Source: Bacteroidales bacterium
Lineage (GTDB): Bacteria > Bacteroidota > Bacteroidia > Bacteroidales > Prolixibacteraceae
Assembly: GCA_047972135.1 (NCBI GenBank)
Contig: JBKEAJ010000005.1
Coordinates: 11,798 to 35,797, forward strand
DNA: 24,000 nt
Direction of reading: 5' to 3'
Part shown: positions 1,531-17,010 of the stretch, in pieces
Layout: each line of letters starts with the position of its first letter
How positions within the stretch are numbered: the first letter of the stretch is position 1
The notes under the pieces: generated by a model
What the model was told of the DNA's origin: nothing
Seen by the model: only the letters and a program-made list of their open reading frames with translations
Database searches by the model: none
Position numbers and translations under genes: made by a program

Positions 1531-4191
1531 ATGAAAGGAATAATTACATTTTTACTATTAAGCATAAGTTTTGGCATGTATGTCCAAACGGATTGCTACG
1601 ATGATGCTACAAAGTTTGCTGAGAAATATTACAATAAAGGCATGATAGCAGAAGCGAAAGCATATATTGAAGATAACGAAAAACCGTGTGCAGGAGAGCC
1701 TTCCGAGGTCTTTAAGTGCATAAAAGAAAAGGTCTATTCCTACAAAGAAGGAAGTCTTATAGATAGGGTTGACCGTATGCAAGAAATTGCCGACCCCGTA
1801 CCAAAAAACAATTTTAAGACTTACACTGAGACCGTAAACGGTGTAAGTTTTAAGATGGTAGCTGTAGATGGCGGCAGCTTTTATATGGGCAGCAATGATG
1901 GAGATGATGATGAAAAGCCCGTTCACCGTGTAAGTCTTAGCGATTATTATATTGGCGAGACAGAGGTAACGCAAGCCTTGTGGGAGACAGTAATGGGCGA
2001 CAATCCGAGCGGTATTAAAGGCAGTAATAATCCAGTAGAGTGGGTGAGTTGGAATGAATGCCGGGAGTTTGTAGATAGGTTGAACAGACTTACGGGTAAA
2101 AGTTATCGATTGCCCACCGAGGCAGAGTGGGAGTTTGCGGCGCGAGGCGGTACCAGTAGTTCTGGCTATAAGTATTCCGGCAGTGATAAAGTTAGTGGCG
2201 TAGCTTGGTACAGAGACAACGGTGGAAATAAGACTCACCCTGTAAAGGGCAAGCAGAGTAATGAATTAGGTTTGTACGACATGAGTGGTAATGTATCTGA
2301 GTGGTGTAGTGATTGGTACGCTTCTGATTACTATAGCAGCAGTTCTAGCAGCAATCCTAGGGGACCTAGTAGCGGTCCTAGCCGTGTGGTACGTGGCGGT
2401 GGCTGGAGCAACTACGCATGGTACTGTCAGGTGGCTGAGCGCGACAGCCTCAATCCGAGCTTTAGCAACTACCGACTTGGCTTGCGCCTCGCCTCCAGTT
2501 CAAATTATGAGGCATCTGTTCCTGCCAATAGTTCTACTGCTCAAAAAGAGGCAGAACGCAAGGTCGCTGCCGAGCGTGCCCAGCAAGCGGAAGCGAATCA
2601 TTTTAAAACCTACACGGAAACTGTAAACGGTGTAAGCTTTAAGATGATAGCTGTAGATAGTGGCAGCTTTAATATGGGAGACAATGAGTGGGGTTGGTCA
2701 AAGCCCATTCACCGTGTTAGCTTGAGCGATTATTATATATGCGAGACAGAGGTAACGCAAGCCTTGTGGGAGGCAGTAATGGGCGATAATCCTAGTTGTT
2801 TTAAAGGCAGCACTAATCCAGTAGAGCGGGTGAATTGGAACGACTGCCAAGAGTTTGTTATCAGGTTGAGTAATTTAACTGGCAGGAGCTACCGTTTGCC
2901 TACAGAGGCAGAGTGGGAGTTTGCGGCGCGAGGTGGCAACAGTAGTTATGGCTATAAGTTCTCGGGTAGCGATAGAGCTAGTGGCGTAGCTTGGTATGAA
3001 GACAACAGTGGAAGTAAGACCCACCCTGTAAAGGGCAAGCGGAGTAATGAATTAGGTTTGTACGACATGAGTGGTAATGTCTGGGAGTGGTGCAGCGACT
3101 GGTACGCTTTTGATTACTATAGCAACAGTTCTAGCAGCAACCCTAGGGGACCTAGTAGCCGCCCTACCCGTGTGGTACGTGGCGGTTGCTGGGGCGACTA
3201 CGCGTCGTACGGCCAGGTGGCTAATCGCTACGGCAGCAGTCAGAGCGACAGCATCAACAATGTAGGCTTTCGCCTTGCCTCCAGTTCAGCGATAAAAGGC
3301 TTTTTGGACAATGAAAAAGAACAGGAGAAAGATGCCACTGCATGGCAACAGGCAAAAGATGTAAACATCATAGCAGGCTACGAAAACTACCTAGGCAGCT
3401 ACCCTTCGGGCAAGCATAAAGCGGAAGCCGAAAGAGCATTGGCAAGTCTAAAGCAAGAGGCAGAAAAGATGATAGCCGCCCAAGCGGAAACGAACCGCTT
3501 TAAAACTTTTACAGAAACCGTAAACGGTGTTAGCTTTAAGATGGTAGCAGTGAAAGGAGGTAGTTTTGATATGGGCAGCAATGATGGATATGCTGAAAAT
3601 CCCGTACACCGAGTAAGTCTTAGCGATTATTACATTGGCGAGACCGAGGTAACACAAGAGTTGTGGGAGGCAGTAATGGGAGATAACCCTAGTAATCTTA
3701 GCGGTAGTAATAATCCTGTGGAACAGGTAAGTTGGGATGAATGCCAAGAGTTTGTACGGCAGTTGAGTAGCCAGACAGGTCGGACTTACCGCATGCCCAC
3801 CGAAGCAGAGTGGGAGTTTGCGGCACGTGGCGGTAATAATAGTTATGGCTATAAGTATTCGGGGAGTGATAATATAGGCGATGTTGCTTGGTATGGTAGC
3901 AACTGCGGAGGTAAAACTCACCCTGTAAAGGGCAAGCAGAGTAATGAATTAGGTTTGTACGACATGAGTGGCAATGTATCGGAATGGTGTAGTGATTGGT
4001 ATGATAGCGACTATTACAACAGTAGCCCTAGTAGTAATCCTAAGGGACCTAGCATTGGCTCTAGCCGTGTGGTACGTGGCGGTAGCAAGAGCGGCTCCGC
4101 AGCGTACTGTCAGGTGGCTGAGCGCCACTACTTCTTTCTGAGCCATGGCGACTACGACCTTGGCTTGCGCCTCGCTTCCGGTTCAAAGTAG
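1531..4191 (+). CDS. Secreted protein with three tandem FGE-sulfatase (SUMF1/DUF323, C-type-lectin-fold) domains
   Basis: N-terminal signal-like segment MKGIITFLLLSISFGMYV. Three copies of ...FKMVAVxGGSFxMGS...HRVSLSDYYIGETEVTQALWE...RLPTEAEWEFAARGG...THPVKGKQSNELGLYDMSGNVSEWCSDWY...RVVRGG...LGLRLA. Starts 30 nt after the PP2C stop. Confidence 0.9.
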   Translation: MKGIITFLLLSISFGMYVQTDCYDDATKFAEKYYNKGMIAEAKAYIEDNEKPCAGEPSEVFKCIKEKVYSYKEGSLIDRVDRMQEIADPVPKNNFKTYTETVNGVSFKMVAVDGGSFYMGSNDGDDDEKPVHRVSLSDYYIGETEVTQALWETVMGDNPSGIKGSNNPVEWVSWNECREFVDRLNRLTGKSYRLPTEAEWEFAARGGTSSSGYKYSGSDKVSGVAWYRDNGGNKTHPVKGKQSNELGLYDMSGNVSEWCSDWYASDYYSSSSSSNPRGPSSGPSRVVRGGGWSNYAWYCQVAERDSLNPSFSNYRLGLRLASSSNYEASVPANSSTAQKEAERKVAAERAQQAEANHFKTYTETVNGVSFKMIAVDSGSFNMGDNEWGWSKPIHRVSLSDYYICETEVTQALWEAVMGDNPSCFKGSTNPVERVNWNDCQEFVIRLSNLTGRSYRLPTEAEWEFAARGGNSSYGYKFSGSDRASGVAWYEDNSGSKTHPVKGKRSNELGLYDMSGNVWEWCSDWYAFDYYSNSSSSNPRGPSSRPTRVVRGGCWGDYASYGQVANRYGSSQSDSINNVGFRLASSSAIKGFLDNEKEQEKDATAWQQAKDVNIIAGYENYLGSYPSGKHKAEAERALASLKQEAEKMIAAQAETNRFKTFTETVNGVSFKMVAVKGGSFDMGSNDGYAENPVHRVSLSDYYIGETEVTQELWEAVMGDNPSNLSGSNNPVEQVSWDECQEFVRQLSSQTGRTYRMPTEAEWEFAARGGNNSYGYKYSGSDNIGDVAWYGSNCGGKTHPVKGKQSNELGLYDMSGNVSEWCSDWYDSDYYNSSPSSNPKGPSIGSSRVVRGGSKSGSAAYCQVAERHYFFLSHGDYDLGLRLASGSK
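1810..2503 (+). repeat. Intragenic repeat unit 1 (FGE-sulfatase domain 1)
   Basis: Starts aattttaagacttacactgagaccgtaaacggtgtaag and ends cgcctcgcctccagttca. Aligns along its length with units 2 and 3. Confidence 0.9.
2599..3288 (+). repeat. Intragenic repeat unit 2 (FGE-sulfatase domain 2)
   Basis: Starts cattttaaaacctacacggaaactgtaaacggtgtaag and ends cgccttgcctccagttca. Offset from unit 1 is 789 nt. Confidence 0.9.
3496..4186 (+). repeat. Intragenic repeat unit 3 (FGE-sulfatase domain 3)
   Basis: Starts cgctttaaaacttttacagaaaccgtaaacggtgttag and ends cgcctcgcttccggttca. Offset from unit 2 is 897 nt because of a longer linker. A 56-nt block (3916-3971) is identical to 2233-2288. Confidence 0.9.
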
Positions 4192-12762: not shown

Positions 12763-12832
12763 TGCCGAAACTATAGTATGAGGTAGCCGAAAATCATATA
12801 GAGTAGGCAATTTAAACAAAGTGAGTAATAGA

Positions 12833-13495
12833 ATGAAAAAGTTATTGAAATTATTGCCAATGTTCTTATTGGTAGGTATGTTGGCAACAAGTTGTTCAAG
12901 TGATGATGATGACAATGGAGGTATTGGTGCAGGTACTCTTAAAATTGGAAATCAAAGTCAGTCTTTGATTTCAGGTTCTCTTGTGTGCGAAGATACTCTG
13001 ACTATCAACAATGCTACGGTATACAAATTTGAGTTGGGTCTTGTTTCGGCAGGTGCAAAATGGTCTGAAACATCTAAAGAATTCATTCCTGATGGAACGC
13101 CTACAGAAGCAGCCGAAGTGTCTTTCTCTCTGTATTCTTCAAGTAATGACGGTCTAGTTGATGGAGCTTATAGTTGCGCAGATTATAAATCTGAGAATTA
13201 TTGCGCAGCCAAGACTTATTCTTCGAGTGATGCTAGTATTTATACTAATCTTAGTGATTACGAAAACGATGAGGATGGCGACTTATCTCCAACAAAAGGT
13301 GATGATGCATTTACTACAAATGAGTTGGGACTCACTGGAGAACTTACAGTAACGAAAGCTGGCGAAGCTTACACCTTTGCTTATTCAGGAAAAGCAACTG
13401 TAAAGTATAGAGAGGTTGCATCAGACTCTGTAAAATCTAAAGTAGTAGAAAATGTAACAATCTCTTATACAGGGTTGTTGAATGTTGTGAAGTAA
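12833..13495 (+). CDS. Hypothetical lipoprotein
   Basis: MKKLLKLLPMFLLVGMLATSCSSDDDDNGG is a lipoprotein signal plus an acidic, Bacteroidota surface-export-like stretch. No family recognised. The ORF track uses a GTG at 12821; the ATG at 12833 is more likely. Confidence 0.7.
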   Translation: MKKLLKLLPMFLLVGMLATSCSSDDDDNGGIGAGTLKIGNQSQSLISGSLVCEDTLTINNATVYKFELGLVSAGAKWSETSKEFIPDGTPTEAAEVSFSLYSSSNDGLVDGAYSCADYKSENYCAAKTYSSSDASIYTNLSDYENDEDGDLSPTKGDDAFTTNELGLTGELTVTKAGEAYTFAYSGKATVKYREVASDSVKSKVVENVTISYTGLLNVVK

Positions 13496-13516
13496 GTAAG
13501 TACAGACATTACTAAG

Positions 13517-13547
13517 AAACCGATGCTCCATACGAGTATCGGTTTTT
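13517..13547 (+). terminator. Rho-independent terminator after the lipoprotein gene
   Basis: Stem aaaccgatgctc / gagtatcggttt with loop catac, followed by ttttt. Confidence 0.75.
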
Positions 13548-13610
13548 GTATATGTAGGGGTTTAGTATATGACAAAATTGCAATACATATCAAGCACTGA
13601 AAGTGCGATA

Positions 13611-13700
13611 GCCATTGCTCGCATGCTCCTCGCAATGACGTTCGTGTATTGGTTGTTCGCTTATAGCCTAAAGCCTACGGCATATAGCTTGTATTTATAT
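13611..13700. repeat. Interspersed intergenic repeat copy
   Basis: The reverse complement of 13624-13643 (gaacgtcattgcgaggagca) is identical to 14871-14890. The following gcttatagcctaaagcctacggcatatagctt belongs to the ataagc/tatagc motif group also seen at 651-730 and 15079-15115. Confidence 0.7.
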
Positions 13701-13791
13701 CATTACCGAGTCATTATTTTTTGTCATTGTACTAAGATAACAAACACTAAACTTCTAAACCAAACGTTATTACTACGATAATTAAATTTAT

Positions 13792-14538
13792 ATGATAGAT
13801 TTTCCCGCTAGATTTGTACTTTTCGATCAAGAAATTCTGTGGCACACCGTCTTGGAAGCACTAGGCATATTTCTGGGGATGCGATATTATTTCTATCTTA
13901 GAAGAAAGTCTTCCACCAGACTGCCATTCACAATATCTCTTTTTATTGTGATTGGGGCAACTGGTGGTGCTTTAATAGGCTCTAAGCTGATTGGCAACCT
14001 TGAACATCCTGAAATACTTTTCAATAATCCATTCTCACTCAAAAGATTTTGGATGAATAATACAATCATTGGCGGATTGTCCTTTGGTTTGATAGGCGTT
14101 GAGCTTATAAAGAAAGCTATCGGACACAAAGAAAGTACCGGCGATTTGATGGTCTTTCCACTTATGCTGGCAATGATAGTCGGGCGTGTAGGGTGCTTTG
14201 TTACAGGTGTTTACGAAGAAACTTATGGAGTGCCCACAAACTCAATCTTCGGGATGTACTTGGGAGACGAATATCGCCGTCACCCTGTTGCGCTATACGA
14301 AATAGTATTTCTGATTGTATTGTGGATTGCAATAGCTGTGTTTAAGAAAAAACATAAGTATGAGTCAGGGCGTTTGTTTCAGATATTTATGCTCTGTTAT
14401 TTTGGCTTTAGGTTTGTGTTAGACTTTATCAAACCCCGATACGAATTGTTTTGGAGTCTGGGAACTATTCAGATAGTTTGTATTGTTGTAATAATATACT
14501 ATCTTTACCTAATATTTATGAGAGACTCTAAGAAGTGA
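13792..14538 (+). CDS. Prolipoprotein diacylglyceryl transferase (Lgt) family integral membrane protein, short divergent form
   Basis: Polytopic membrane protein of 248 aa. Lgt-like blocks GRVGCFVTG (compare GRLGNFINGE in E. coli Lgt), RHPVALYE (compare RHPSQLYE), GFRFVLDFIKP (compare FRIIVEFFRQP) and GGLSFGLIG (compare GGMSFHGG). Confidence 0.8.
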   Translation: MIDFPARFVLFDQEILWHTVLEALGIFLGMRYYFYLRRKSSTRLPFTISLFIVIGATGGALIGSKLIGNLEHPEILFNNPFSLKRFWMNNTIIGGLSFGLIGVELIKKAIGHKESTGDLMVFPLMLAMIVGRVGCFVTGVYEETYGVPTNSIFGMYLGDEYRRHPVALYEIVFLIVLWIAIAVFKKKHKYESGRLFQIFMLCYFGFRFVLDFIKPRYELFWSLGTIQIVCIVVIIYYLYLIFMRDSKK

Positions 14539-14592
14539 GTTTGAGGAAGTGAAGGAGTTGTCATTTTTCGTAGTATAATAATACGTAATGTT

Positions 14593-14781
14593 ATGGTCGG
14601 ATTTGTACTATTAGTGCTTCTTGCACTATTTGTGTTTGGAAATATAATAGCAGGTGTGGTTAGTCTGGTATTACATCTTACGAATAAGAACTATTTTTCT
14701 ACAAAACAATATTTTATGCTTGTTTTTGTATTAATGCTGATAGGAGGAATTATTATAGGAGGAATTTGCTCTGGCATGTAG
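14593..14781 (+). CDS. Small two-helix membrane peptide (62 aa), paralog A
   Basis: Two hydrophobic helices separated by LTNKNYFSTKQY. The C-terminal half (KQYFMLVFVLMLIGGIIIGGICSGM) is conserved with the unlisted ORF at 15224-15400. Confidence 0.55.
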   Translation: MVGFVLLVLLALFVFGNIIAGVVSLVLHLTNKNYFSTKQYFMLVFVLMLIGGIIIGGICSGM

Positions 14782-14827
14782 TAAAATAATGTGCGAGCTG
14801 TTGATACTAAGATATTACAAGACTGTG

Positions 14828-15102
14828 ATGTTTAAGCGTTGAACCGTTTAAGCGTAACAGCCAAATACAGGAACGTCATTGCGAGGAGCAGGCGACGAAG
14901 CAATCTCCTGCAACAAAGAACAGATTGCCGCGATATCGCTCGCAATGACAGATGATTATGAATGAAACACAATTGTTTAGGCGTTGAATCGTTTAAGGTT
15001 TATAGTAAGAATTAACGAATTAATAATTAGACGACAAGGTAGTCCGTAGGACTTATATTTTAGTAGGAAAAAAGATAACAAAAGCATAAAGCCTATAGCT
15101 TA
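14828..15102. repeat. Composite intergenic repeat element between the two small-peptide genes
   Basis: Direct repeats gtttaagcgttgaaccgtttaag (14830-14852) and gtttaggcgttgaatcgtttaag (14975-14997), 21/23 identical. They flank a perfect 11-bp inverted repeat gtcattgcgag (14875-14885) / ctcgcaatgac (14939-14949). 15079-15102 matches 708-730. Confidence 0.75.
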
Positions 15103-15223
15103 CAGCTTATTGCAAAATTATAAACAGATGAATACAGCGATAATGCTTGGGTTTAGGGGAGATGGATTGGGTGGTCTTATATGGACTACTGACTAGTAGT
15201 TGTGAATATTAAAAAATGAAAGT

Positions 15224-15400
15224 ATGGTGAGTTTTGCTATGATTGTAGTACTATTTATAGTCTCAAATATCATTACATTGATAGTCAGAGCTATTTATAA
15301 TAGTGAAAAGGATAAGTGGCTTTTGCCAAAGCAATATTGGCTGATTGTCCTCGCATTAATGCTATTGGGTGGAATTATTAGCGGTATGTGCTATAATTAG
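15224..15400 (+). CDS. Small two-helix membrane peptide (58 aa), paralog B; below the ORF-track length cutoff
   Basis: My translation: MVSFAMIVVLFIVSNIITLIVRAIYNSEKDKWLLPKQYWLIVLALMLLGGIISGMCYN, ending at a stop codon. It aligns with the 14593 peptide: MV.F at the N-terminus, NII, KQY, LML.GGII, and a conserved C-proximal Cys. Confidence 0.5.
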   Translation: MVSFAMIVVLFIVSNIITLIVRAIYNSEKDKWLLPKQYWLIVLALMLLGGIISGMCYN

Positions 15401-15574
15401 TGCTTGTCCATAATGTCAAGAGTCTGAGATAGAAAGTTCATGATTAAGGCTTGCGAAACTTTGTGAAGTAGGAGTTTACTCGTGTAAATGATTAATACGC
15501 AAAGTGAGTGTAACACAGATATTGGACTTTGTAGACGGAATCTAATTAGTAATCAATAAATTAAATAATATATT

Positions 15575-16972
15575 ATGCCGGTTCGCGATTATACCTATTA
15601 CGACTATACCATTAGTCTTTGCCCAGAGTGCTTGAAGCGCATTGGGGCGAAAATAACCATCGAAGACGATGCTGATTTTATGAGAAAAAACTGTCCCGAG
15701 CATGGGGACTTTAAGACAAAGATAGCTTCGGATGTCGATTATTATAAGAATATTAGAAACTACAACAAGGCTTCGGATATGCCATTGTACTTTGAAAGCG
15801 AGATAAAGTACGGTTGCCCTTACGACTGCGGTTTGTGTGTCGACCATGAGCAGCACAGTTGTCTGTCGGTGGTCGAAGTAACCGACCAATGCAATATGTC
15901 TTGCCCCACTTGCTATGCCATGTCCTCGCCAAATTATGGTACTCACAGAACATTGGAAGAGATTGAGGCGATGTTTGATGCGGTAGTCAGAAACGAAGGT
16001 GAGCCTGATGTTGTGCAGATTAGCGGAGGTGAGCCAACAATCCATCCTGAGTTTTTTAAGATTATGGATATTGCCAAGTCGAAGCCTATTAAACACCTGA
16101 TGCTGAATACTAACGGAATCAGAATTGCCAACGAAGATGGATTTGCTGAGAAACTGGCTAGCTATGCTCCCGAATTTGAGATTTATCTGCAGTTTGATTC
16201 TTTTAAACCTGAGGTACTGAAAGACTTTAGAGGAAAGGATATGAGCGATGTGAGAATGAGGGCGTTGGAGAAATTGAACGAACTAAATTTATCTACAACT
16301 CTAGTGGTAGTTTTGCAACAAGGAAAGAATATTGACGAAATAGGAGCGATATTAGACTTTGCAGTAAAACAAAAATGTGTGAGAGGAGTTACATTCCAAC
16401 CCGTAGAAATAGCAGGGCGTAACAGAGAGGACTCCATCAGAGAGAAAATAACGCTGACAGAGGTCAGGCAAGAAGTCCTAAAGCAGTTTCCACTCCTACA
16501 AGCGGATGATATTATTCCTGTTCCTTGCAACCCCGACGCTCTGGCGATGGGATATATGCTGAAATTCTGTGGAGAAATTACTCCGCTGACACGCTATATT
16601 AATCCTGCCGATTTGCTGAATAATGCGTCTAAAAATACCATTATCTACGAGCAGGACGAAGGACTGAAAATGCAAATGATAGACATTTTTAGCACAGGCG
16701 TGTCTGTTGATGATGCCAAATCTAAGGTCGACCAACTGCTTTGCTGTTTGCCCTCAGTTTCCGCTCCGGGATTGGGATATGAAAATCTTTTCCGTATTAT
16801 TATTATGAACTTTATGGATGCCTACGATTTTGATGTCAGAGCGATTAAGAAATCTTGTGTCCATATCGTAAGTAAAGACTTGAAACTGACACCATTTGAG
16901 ACGATGAACCTGTTTTATCGGGACGATAAGAAAAAACATTTAGACAAGCTGCGAGAAACAAATATCTTATGA
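15575..16972 (+). CDS. Radical SAM enzyme with N-terminal zinc-ribbon/rubredoxin-like motif and an auxiliary Cys cluster (COG1964-like; possibly related to archaeal tetraether lipid synthase Tes/GDGT-MAS)
   Basis: Radical SAM motif C106-x3-C110-x2-C113 (CNMSCPTC) and SAM-binding ISGGEPT. Upstream motifs C16-x2-C19...C40-x2-H43 and a second C81-x3-C85-x2-C88...C96. No SPASM-type C-terminal Cys array. Confidence 0.85.
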   Translation: MPVRDYTYYDYTISLCPECLKRIGAKITIEDDADFMRKNCPEHGDFKTKIASDVDYYKNIRNYNKASDMPLYFESEIKYGCPYDCGLCVDHEQHSCLSVVEVTDQCNMSCPTCYAMSSPNYGTHRTLEEIEAMFDAVVRNEGEPDVVQISGGEPTIHPEFFKIMDIAKSKPIKHLMLNTNGIRIANEDGFAEKLASYAPEFEIYLQFDSFKPEVLKDFRGKDMSDVRMRALEKLNELNLSTTLVVVLQQGKNIDEIGAILDFAVKQKCVRGVTFQPVEIAGRNREDSIREKITLTEVRQEVLKQFPLLQADDIIPVPCNPDALAMGYMLKFCGEITPLTRYINPADLLNNASKNTIIYEQDEGLKMQMIDIFSTGVSVDDAKSKVDQLLCCLPSVSAPGLGYENLFRIIIMNFMDAYDFDVRAIKKSCVHIVSKDLKLTPFETMNLFYRDDKKKHLDKLRETNIL

Positions 16973-17002: not shown

Positions 17003-17010
17003 TATATTTG
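17003..17010 (+). promoter_or_regulatory. Candidate -7 promoter box (TATATTTG) for argS
   Basis: Fits TAnnTTTG, 28 nt upstream of the ATG at 17038. The ORF-track TTG start at 17008 sits inside this box. Confidence 0.4.

Follow-up and report, generated by a model that had tools for sequence, protein, structure and literature searches.

Several described systems come close to the locus that we report here. Lgt, the prolipoprotein diacylglyceryl transferase (Escherichia coli structures 5AZB and 5AZC), is a membrane protein of Pfam family PF01790 with seven transmembrane helices and an active site at the outer face of the inner membrane. Tes, or GDGT-MAS (MJ0619; 7TOL and 7TOM), is the archaeal tetraether lipid synthase, an enzyme of the radical S-adenosylmethionine (SAM) type that binds lipid tails and couples sp3 carbons (PMC9433317). 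In a 24,000-nt stretch of contig JBKEAJ010000005.1 (GCA_047972135.1), taken from a metagenome-assembled genome (MAG) named Bacteroidales bacterium and referred to below as the window, a divergent Lgt-family membrane transferase (LgtP), a Tes-like radical SAM enzyme (rSAM), and two mini membrane proteins with a Cys close to the C terminus (the Cys-tail peptides) are encoded together. These four genes are a conserved three-component inner-membrane module that is real and not a chance arrangement.

Two further comparisons help to place this module. Mss, from Thermotoga and Thermoanaerobacter, is likewise a bacterial radical SAM enzyme that joins fatty-acid tails tail to tail, but it belongs to a different radical SAM family, and no Tes homologues were found in the organisms that carry it (PMC13159169). 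All known examples of Mss come from anaerobes, and neither an Lgt nor a peptide partner has been reported for it. The peptides recall lipoprotein signal peptides and the MYXO-CTERM, PEP-CTERM, and PGF-CTERM tags, which combine a short invariant-Cys motif beside a transmembrane helix with a basic cluster and a dedicated membrane enzyme; unlike the C-terminal sorting tags, the module is without a sortase-type protease. The parts belong to known superfamilies, and the system of an Lgt fold, a Tes-like radical SAM enzyme, and mini proteins with a C-terminal Cys matches none described. An initial annotation of this DNA, made from the sequence alone, had known of no system with this composition; in agreement, we found no model for the peptides or for the LgtP-rSAM system in Pfam, NCBIfam (June 2026 release), or PADLOC and no description of the trio in the literature searched (open-access papers and bioRxiv).

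Conservation of the module

A scan for rSAM across one genome per species identified at least 591 carrier species, and 80 loci were kept, from Weeksellaceae, Sphingobacteriaceae, Chitinophagaceae, Flavobacteriaceae, and Lewinella. With the window and nine further loci (L081 to L089), this gives 90 loci that cover Bacteroidota, Planctomycetota, Verrucomicrobiota, Kapabacteria, and metagenome lineages. The rSAM gene lies beside the LgtP gene or is fused to it in 89 of the 90 loci, and at least one Cys-tail membrane protein is encoded in 89 of the 90. Across Bacteroidota, where rSAM identity is 65 to 84%, LgtP is on the same strand as and upstream of rSAM in 79 of the 80 genome loci, often overlapping the rSAM start codon. 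In the sole locus without LgtP (L044), the sequence ends 309 nt before rSAM; in Lewinella, the gap between the two genes is 3.9 kb.

Cys-tail peptides are also encoded in 79 of the 80 genome loci, including one (L071) in which the peptide was missed by the hidden Markov model (HMM) introduced below; only a 4.7-kb contig (L050) is without one. In Weeksellaceae, Sphingobacterium, and the window, the two enzyme genes flank those of the peptides; in Chitinophagaceae, Flavobacteriaceae, and Lewinella, one to four tandem peptide genes are found directly 3' of rSAM. When all open reading frames (ORFs) of the 80 loci were clustered, LgtP, rSAM, and the peptides were the only components common to all lineages. 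Other neighbors were rejected as parts of the module because they proved to be only lineage-specific housekeeping genes, among them those for FabG, RsmI, GMP reductase, SurE, and thymidine kinase.

The association is not confined to Bacteroidota. Searched exhaustively, 1.84 billion cluster representatives yielded 599 rSAM relatives (E <= 1e-30), one of which is a 733-aa protein with an LgtP domain N-terminal of rSAM, and a search with this fusion found at least 57 protein clusters in which PF01790, PF23545, and PF04055 occur in one chain. Named hosts of fusions are Tepidisphaeraceae (Planctomycetota) and Verrucomicrobiota, and unfused relatives occur in Aquisphaera, Opitutaceae, Kapabacteria, and Acidobacteria. 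A small membrane protein is encoded directly 3' of the rSAM or fusion gene, often overlapping it, in all nine further loci; all nine proteins terminate in a motif like that of the Bacteroidota peptides, and the C-terminal ends include GFGLC-LTLAR (L081), AAGLC-FAMAR (L082), IAYC-SMTGPVNFH (L083, Aquisphaera), AFGLC-ITILKNLH (L084), LTIC-GRSFL (L085), AWGLC-LTVFRIHV (L087), and VSAC-FGGLAMSSGMNFH (L089). That the genes are fused in some lineages and stay adjacent in phyla far apart strongly indicates that the proteins act together, and the data show LgtP and the Tes-like rSAM to be obligate partners, encoded by adjacent, often overlapping genes that are fused in Planctomycetota-Verrucomicrobiota-Chlamydiota (PVC) bacteria. 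The initial annotation had treated the genes as one candidate module on the strength of a single locus; the upstream position of LgtP and the fusions bear this out.

Some lineages carry additional genes. In all three fusion loci examined, an overlapping gene lies upstream (L081 2930-4102, L082 3703-5001, and L084 3580-5004), and its product has a weak rhodanese-like domain, a polytopic membrane domain, and the invariant motifs RC-x5-C-x2-C-x-K-x5-C, LLEHxH, and HPxxHQxYE. This protein may be a fourth component in PVC bacteria. It was rejected as a universal part because a search of the 80 Bacteroidota loci found no such gene. Lipid-related genes also adjoin the module in some lineages (L089 5494-6321 and 6872-7990, L086 8849-9637, and L088 705-1649); the products of such neighbors are a CMAS-like methyltransferase, LPG_synthase_TM, a PhyH-family dioxygenase, and CdsA.

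The rSAM of the window is 82 to 84% identical to Weeksellaceae proteins, and the gene order, with peptides between the enzymes, is of the Weeksellaceae/Sphingobacterium type. The NCBI label of the MAG is Bacteroidales, and in that order most cultured members have just one LGT gene. A Weeksellaceae-like rSAM and gene order in a MAG with this label point to lateral transfer or mis-binning.

LgtP, the Lgt-like enzyme

LgtP (248 aa; 13792..14538, + strand) had been described as a divergent member of the Lgt family, and this assignment stands. It matches Pfam LGT with 78.6 bits against a gathering cut-off of 24.9 (E = 6e-22) and stays far short of the cut-offs of the NCBIfam Lgt equivalogs (31 bits versus 118.9 for TIGR00544 and 44.7 versus 334 for NF000778). 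The AlphaFold2 model (predicted local distance difference test score, 89.9) contains seven long transmembrane helices, and its sole significant match in the PDB (E <= 0.001) is E. coli Lgt 5AZB (E = 4.6e-7; template modeling [TM] score, 0.66), from which it differs in a periplasmic head cut to about 25 residues. A single-sequence phmmer search of the PDB with LgtP gave no match; the family profile reaches 5AZB at E = 3e-6.

LgtP shares with Lgt the GR-x-G-x-F signature, with R143, and the RHPxxLYE motif, and its R132, Y203, R207, D211, and K214 correspond to R143, Y235, R239, E243, and R246 of the E. coli enzyme. Across 142 LgtP sequences, R143 and Y235 are kept in all 142 and R239 is kept in 135; E243 is D or E and R246 is K or R in all 142. 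At three other positions, the family departs from Lgt: LgtP H18 and C135 occupy the positions of E. coli Y26 and N146, which are His in 126 and Cys in 132 of the 142 sequences, and H103 is replaced by V, L, or I. The same pair of changes, exactly Y26H plus N146C, is found in MSMEG_5408, the second Lgt homologue of Mycobacterium smegmatis, which is likewise an extra copy beside the main Lgt (PMC13251419). In the same 2026 survey of Lgt, the enzyme of Bacteroides thetaiotaomicron is reported to depart from its E. coli counterpart at just three of 16 conserved residues, G142, Y235, and R246, and to have Y26 and N146 intact (PMC13251419).

Published counts of LGT genes per genome (Table S2 of PMC13251419) are three in Chryseobacterium and Elizabethkingia and two to three in Flavisolibacter, Niabella ginsenosidivorans, and Niastella, compared with one in Porphyromonas, Prevotella, Alistipes, Parabacteroides, Dokdonia, and Cellulophaga. 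Module-carrying genera have two to three such genes, versus one in most Bacteroidales. The extra-copy status of LgtP is read from these counts for carrier genera. In Chryseobacterium and Elizabethkingia, the same table leaves a third PF01790 gene beyond the canonical lgt and LgtP. Based on the equivalog scores below cut-off, the substitutions, and the counts in carrier genera, the LgtP family is, judged by its sequences, an accessory Lgt paralog rather than the housekeeping enzyme, and one that is always partnered with or fused to rSAM.

Could LgtP nonetheless be a housekeeping lgt that lies by chance next to an unrelated radical SAM gene and some spurious small ORFs? Databases do name it "prolipoprotein diacylglyceryl transferase." Against this label stand scores far under the Lgt equivalog cut-offs, the two to three LGT copies of carrier genera where most Bacteroidales have one, an arrangement kept in 89 of 90 loci across phyla, the existence of LgtP-rSAM fusion proteins, and peptides that are under purifying selection (see below). 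We regard this explanation as extremely improbable.

The Tes-like radical SAM enzyme

The rSAM protein (465 aa; 15575..16972, + strand) belongs to a distinct, LgtP-associated clade of Tes/GDGT-MAS-like radical SAM enzymes. The initial annotation had recognized a radical SAM enzyme with a zinc-ribbon-like N terminus, a second CX3CX2C motif, and no SPASM domain, and the Pfam scan agrees: it finds Zn_ribbon_HMPTM and Radical_SAM and no SPASM or RRE domain, and the two CX3CX2C motifs are C81/C85/C88 and C106/C110/C113. By both sequence and fold, the only full-length relative of rSAM is GDGT-MAS/Tes, which it matches (7TOL) at E = 4.5e-63 by sequence and at E = 3.5e-37 by fold (TM score, 0.81/0.76); for the next-best fold matches, the TM score is about 0.37. 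The proposed resemblance to the archaeal tetraether lipid synthase, and not to an unrelated family of known function, is thus upheld. At the level of equivalogs, rSAM stays below the cut-offs of both its best NCBIfam match, TrsS (NF045646; 312.3 bits versus 490), and Tes (267.3 bits versus 450).

The likeness to GDGT-MAS comprises the whole-length fold, the rubredoxin-like CX2CX20CX2H motif, the N-terminal CX3CX2C with its His cluster, and the radical SAM CX3CX2C. In 32 diverse rSAM sequences, the invariant residues include C16/C19/C40/H43, C81/C85/C88/H91/H94/C96, C106/C110/C113, and C318/C390/C391/C428/H430. In contrast to the archaeal enzyme, rSAM is found in bacteria with ester lipids and is accompanied by an Lgt-like partner and Cys-tail peptides, which are described for no archaeal Tes. 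The enzyme must be cytoplasmic.

Two other labels can be set aside. JGI names rSAM relatives "7,8-dihydro-6-hydroxymethylpterin dimethyltransferase," which is inherited from the old annotation of MJ0619, an annotation that the GDGT-MAS structure paper rejected (PMC9433317). Assignment to a known defense system was rejected as well, as PADLOC gave rSAM only generic similarity to the viperin core.

The Cys-tail mini membrane proteins

The two peptides of the window (62 aa, 14593..14781, + strand, ending IGGIC-SGM; and 58 aa, 15224..15400, + strand, ending ISGMC-YN) each have two transmembrane helices. They are paralogs, as had been thought (39% identity; E = 6e-12), and neither has a match above cut-off in Pfam or NCBIfam. 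An HMM built iteratively from small ORFs of the 80 Bacteroidota loci gathered a family of 107 members, all 107 of which are on the strand of the enzymes and all but one of which adjoin them. The near-C-terminal Cys that the initial annotation had noticed in both window peptides is invariant (106/106) among the 106 distinct peptides on which motif statistics were computed. The last helix ends in the motif [LI][IVA][GS]xx[IVTAL]-C-[GST], with a tail of 1 to 15 residues: position -6 is L or I in 98 of the 106, position -4 is G or S in 102, position -1 is I, V, T, or L in 80 and A or S in 18, and position +1 is G, S, or T in 101. Chryseobacterium-type orthologs have a ratio of nonsynonymous to synonymous substitution rates (dN/dS) of about 0.09, which shows that the peptide genes are real and under purifying selection; the conservation on which the earlier reading depended is therefore present.

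Ahead of the Cys lies an uncharged stretch with a median length of 19 residues, and the mean number of K/R is 3.4 in the 15 residues preceding this stretch versus 0.2 in the tail that follows the Cys. Based on this distribution, the Cys is predicted to sit at the outer face of the inner membrane, where the active site of Lgt lies. The likely acceptor resembles that of Lgt in being a Cys that caps, on the outer side, a hydrophobic helix with a basic segment before it. The order of basic segment, helix, and Cys is that of a lipoprotein signal peptide; in the peptides, as ahead of the canonical lipobox [LVI][ASTVI][GAS]C, there is a basic segment and then an uncharged helix, which in the peptides has 15 to 21 residues. 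The N-terminal placement and the mature domain are lacking; the motif is at the C terminus of a mini protein, only the short tail follows the Cys, and position -1 is mostly I, V, T, or L. In other words, this is not a canonical N-terminal lipobox, as the initial annotation had pointed out, and the presumed acceptors of LgtP differ in this respect, and in the bulky -1 residue, from those of Lgt. A CaaX box, prompted by the frequent endings CGGM and CSGM, was rejected as a rule because of the variable tail length.

Each locus encodes one to four peptides whose sequences are highly variable outside the motif, and tandem paralogs with such variability are typical of substrates. In Aquisphaera giovannonii, the Cys-tail proteins (L083 6431-6898 and 7755-8210) have about 150 aa and an N-terminal, zinc-ribbon-like CxxC...CxxC head; one protein of this species ends CSMTGPVNFH, and the N-F-H ending is also seen in Chitinophagaceae peptides.

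If the peptides are substrates, is rSAM the enzyme that acts on them? In a maturation of the kind known for peptides that are made on ribosomes and modified after translation (RiPPs), rSAM would modify the peptide Cys or the C-terminal tail (for example, by forming a thioether or C-S bond) before or during membrane insertion, and LgtP would lipidate or dock the peptide. Small, tandem, precursor-like genes with a conserved C-terminal motif are in keeping with this idea, as are the facts that Cys-containing peptides are modified by many radical SAM enzymes, that the rSAM family has four invariant C-terminal Cys residues of its own, and that GDGT-MAS itself forms a C-S bond with a cluster sulfide in the course of its reaction (PMC9433317). 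However, rSAM has neither a SPASM nor an RRE domain, the RiPP maturases SkfB and SuiB align with it over the core barrel only (TM score of about 0.37, compared with 0.81 for GDGT-MAS), and the predicted topology sets the Cys across the membrane from rSAM. On balance, we consider RiPP-like maturation improbable.

Alternatively, the peptides may not be substrates at all. In a lipid-only pathway, LgtP and rSAM would make a modified free membrane lipid, such as membrane-spanning or macrocyclic phospholipids of the iso-diabolic-acid type, with LgtP as a partner that, embedded in the membrane, binds or presents the lipid and the mini proteins as structural or regulatory subunits. The sole full-length relative of rSAM is a lipid-tail enzyme, rSAM is fused to a lipid-binding membrane protein, and genes for a CMAS-like methyltransferase, LPG_synthase_TM, PhyH, and CdsA lie near some loci; moreover, bacterial Tes homologues have been proposed to be synthases of glycerol dialkyl glycerol tetraethers of the branched type (brGDGTs) or membrane-spanning lipids (PMC8941075). 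Yet a mere subunit would hardly need a Cys that never varies, set where its helix ends on the outer side, next to an Lgt-family enzyme in which the catalytic Arg pair is kept; equally hard to square with this role are the tandem copies, their variability outside the motif, and N-terminal parts that vary to the point of a zinc-ribbon head in Aquisphaera. We see a lipid-only pathway as unlikely, if a serious contender. The initial annotation had offered two options, small accessory subunits in a lipid-tail pathway or lipidation of the peptides themselves; the data favor the latter without settling the choice.

What the module probably does

We posit that the module makes a peptide-anchored, tail-modified lipid, with LgtP lipidating the peptide Cys and rSAM remodeling the tails. 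We favor this reading tentatively, with slightly less than even confidence, on the basis of the comparisons above. LgtP would be an active Lgt-like transferase with its own acceptors and a phosphatidylglycerol-type lipid as the donor, and at the outer face of the inner membrane it would attach a (di)acylglyceryl group by a thioether to the mini-protein Cys, whose motif would serve as a private pseudo-lipobox. The specificity of LspA (signal peptidase II) disfavors a bulky residue at -1; with I, V, T, or L at this position, signal peptidase II would probably not cut, and the peptide would stay as an anchor. On the cytoplasmic face, rSAM would be tethered to the C terminus of LgtP and would use a 5'-deoxyadenosyl radical on unactivated lipid-tail carbons, as GDGT-MAS does. 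We speculate that the most likely reaction would be tail-to-tail C-C coupling to a macrocyclic or membrane-spanning lipid and that iso-branched acyl chains, which are common in these bacteria, would be the coupled tails; Zeng et al. noted that iso-branched fatty acid tails end like phytanyl chains (PMC8941075). The tails could be remodeled while still on the donor lipid, ahead of transfer, or once the peptide has been lipidated, and the product would be a peptide-anchored glycerolipid with radical-remodeled tails. As far as computation can show, the interpretation first given to this locus is supported.

Several observations weigh against this mechanism. Y26, H103, and N146, which are altered in LgtP, are essential in E. 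coli Lgt, and the M. smegmatis paralog with Y26H and N146C is presumed to have low activity (PMC13251419); N146C is also present in the Lgt of Leptospira, so that this change alone is no proof of activity loss. [quoted passage not shown] Of GDGT-MAS Cys residues 438, 455, 456, and 470, near Met439, only one is kept (C428), and rSAM has C318, C390, C391, C428, and an extra C96 instead. With Tyr459 and three Cys residues lost, the chemistry of rSAM may differ from C-C coupling. Topology presents a further difficulty, in that the Cys and the LgtP active site are predicted to face outward and rSAM is cytoplasmic, so that one molecule could be handled by both enzymes only via a flip or a membrane-spanning intermediate. 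In the literature searched, membrane-spanning lipids are not reported from these Bacteroidota. Finally, G, S, M, N, and H abound in the peptide tails, which are nearly without acidic residues and have His as the final residue in 28 of the 106 peptides, and a Met/His-rich tail hints at another role for the peptide end. This enrichment may point to a copper-binding tail.

What would it mean if a peptide-anchored, tail-modified lipid were indeed the product? An Lgt fold would have been put to use in a further lipidation system, a private one in which dedicated mini proteins are the acceptors, and this would explain one class of the Y26H/N146C "second lgt copies" that are now dismissed as low in activity. 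Bacterial Tes homologues in metagenomes are now counted as candidate synthases of brGDGTs or membrane-spanning lipids; a large clade of them is never without an Lgt-like partner and Cys-tail peptides, and this changes the meaning of those counts. More speculatively, this clade could build, by radical tail-to-tail coupling, a membrane-spanning or macrocyclic diacylglyceryl that is covalently primed on, and thioether linked to the Cys of, a ribosomal mini protein. Lipid-protein conjugates of this kind would form a new class, and the clade could also be the missing oxygen-tolerant route to lipids of the iso-diabolic-acid or brGDGT type, an improbable reading at present; the hosts of such a bacterial route could be Bacteroidota, Planctomycetota, Verrucomicrobiota, and Acidobacteriota. 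The module is found in culturable aerobes (Chryseobacterium, Elizabethkingia, and Sphingobacterium). Small S-diacylglyceryl-Cys peptides are classic TLR2 ligands, and such products from host-associated Bacteroidota, if made, would be of immunological interest.

Surroundings of the module in the window

The initial annotation had placed four co-oriented ORFs between a terminator and argS, and all four are found there. The terminator-like element is a strong hairpin (13517..13547, + strand) in which a U run comes after a 14-bp stem (-21.1 kcal/mol; z = -6.0), and it marks both the end of the upstream lipoprotein gene and the 5' boundary of the module; argS starts at 17008, downstream of the rSAM gene. 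The rest of the window is ordinary chromosome, with genes for AdoHcy hydrolase, Pth, L25, Prs, EngB, ArgS, Adk, and Obg.

An Rfam scan of 13480-15600 found no credible RNA element. Within this region, a 32-nt inverted repeat (94%; 13619-13650 and 14864-14895) and a 26-nt direct repeat (13665-13690 and 15083-15108) each have their first copy 5' of LgtP; their second copies fall in a spacer of 442 nt that separates the peptide genes (14782-15223) and is strongly folded (z = -4.3). Given that the tandem peptide genes of Weeksellaceae are only about 10 nt apart, this spacer looks like an inserted repeated intergenic element. Farther upstream, Rfam model RF02914 detects a DUF805b RNA motif at 12777-12809 (+ strand), with 42.1 bits and thus more than the gathering score, just 5' of the gene for a 224-aa lipoprotein (12821-13495). 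Near the start of the window, a gene for a PP2C-type phosphatase (694-1500) precedes one for an 886-aa protein (1531-4191, + strand) in which three stretches match the FGE-sulfatase domain (E = 6.5e-134).

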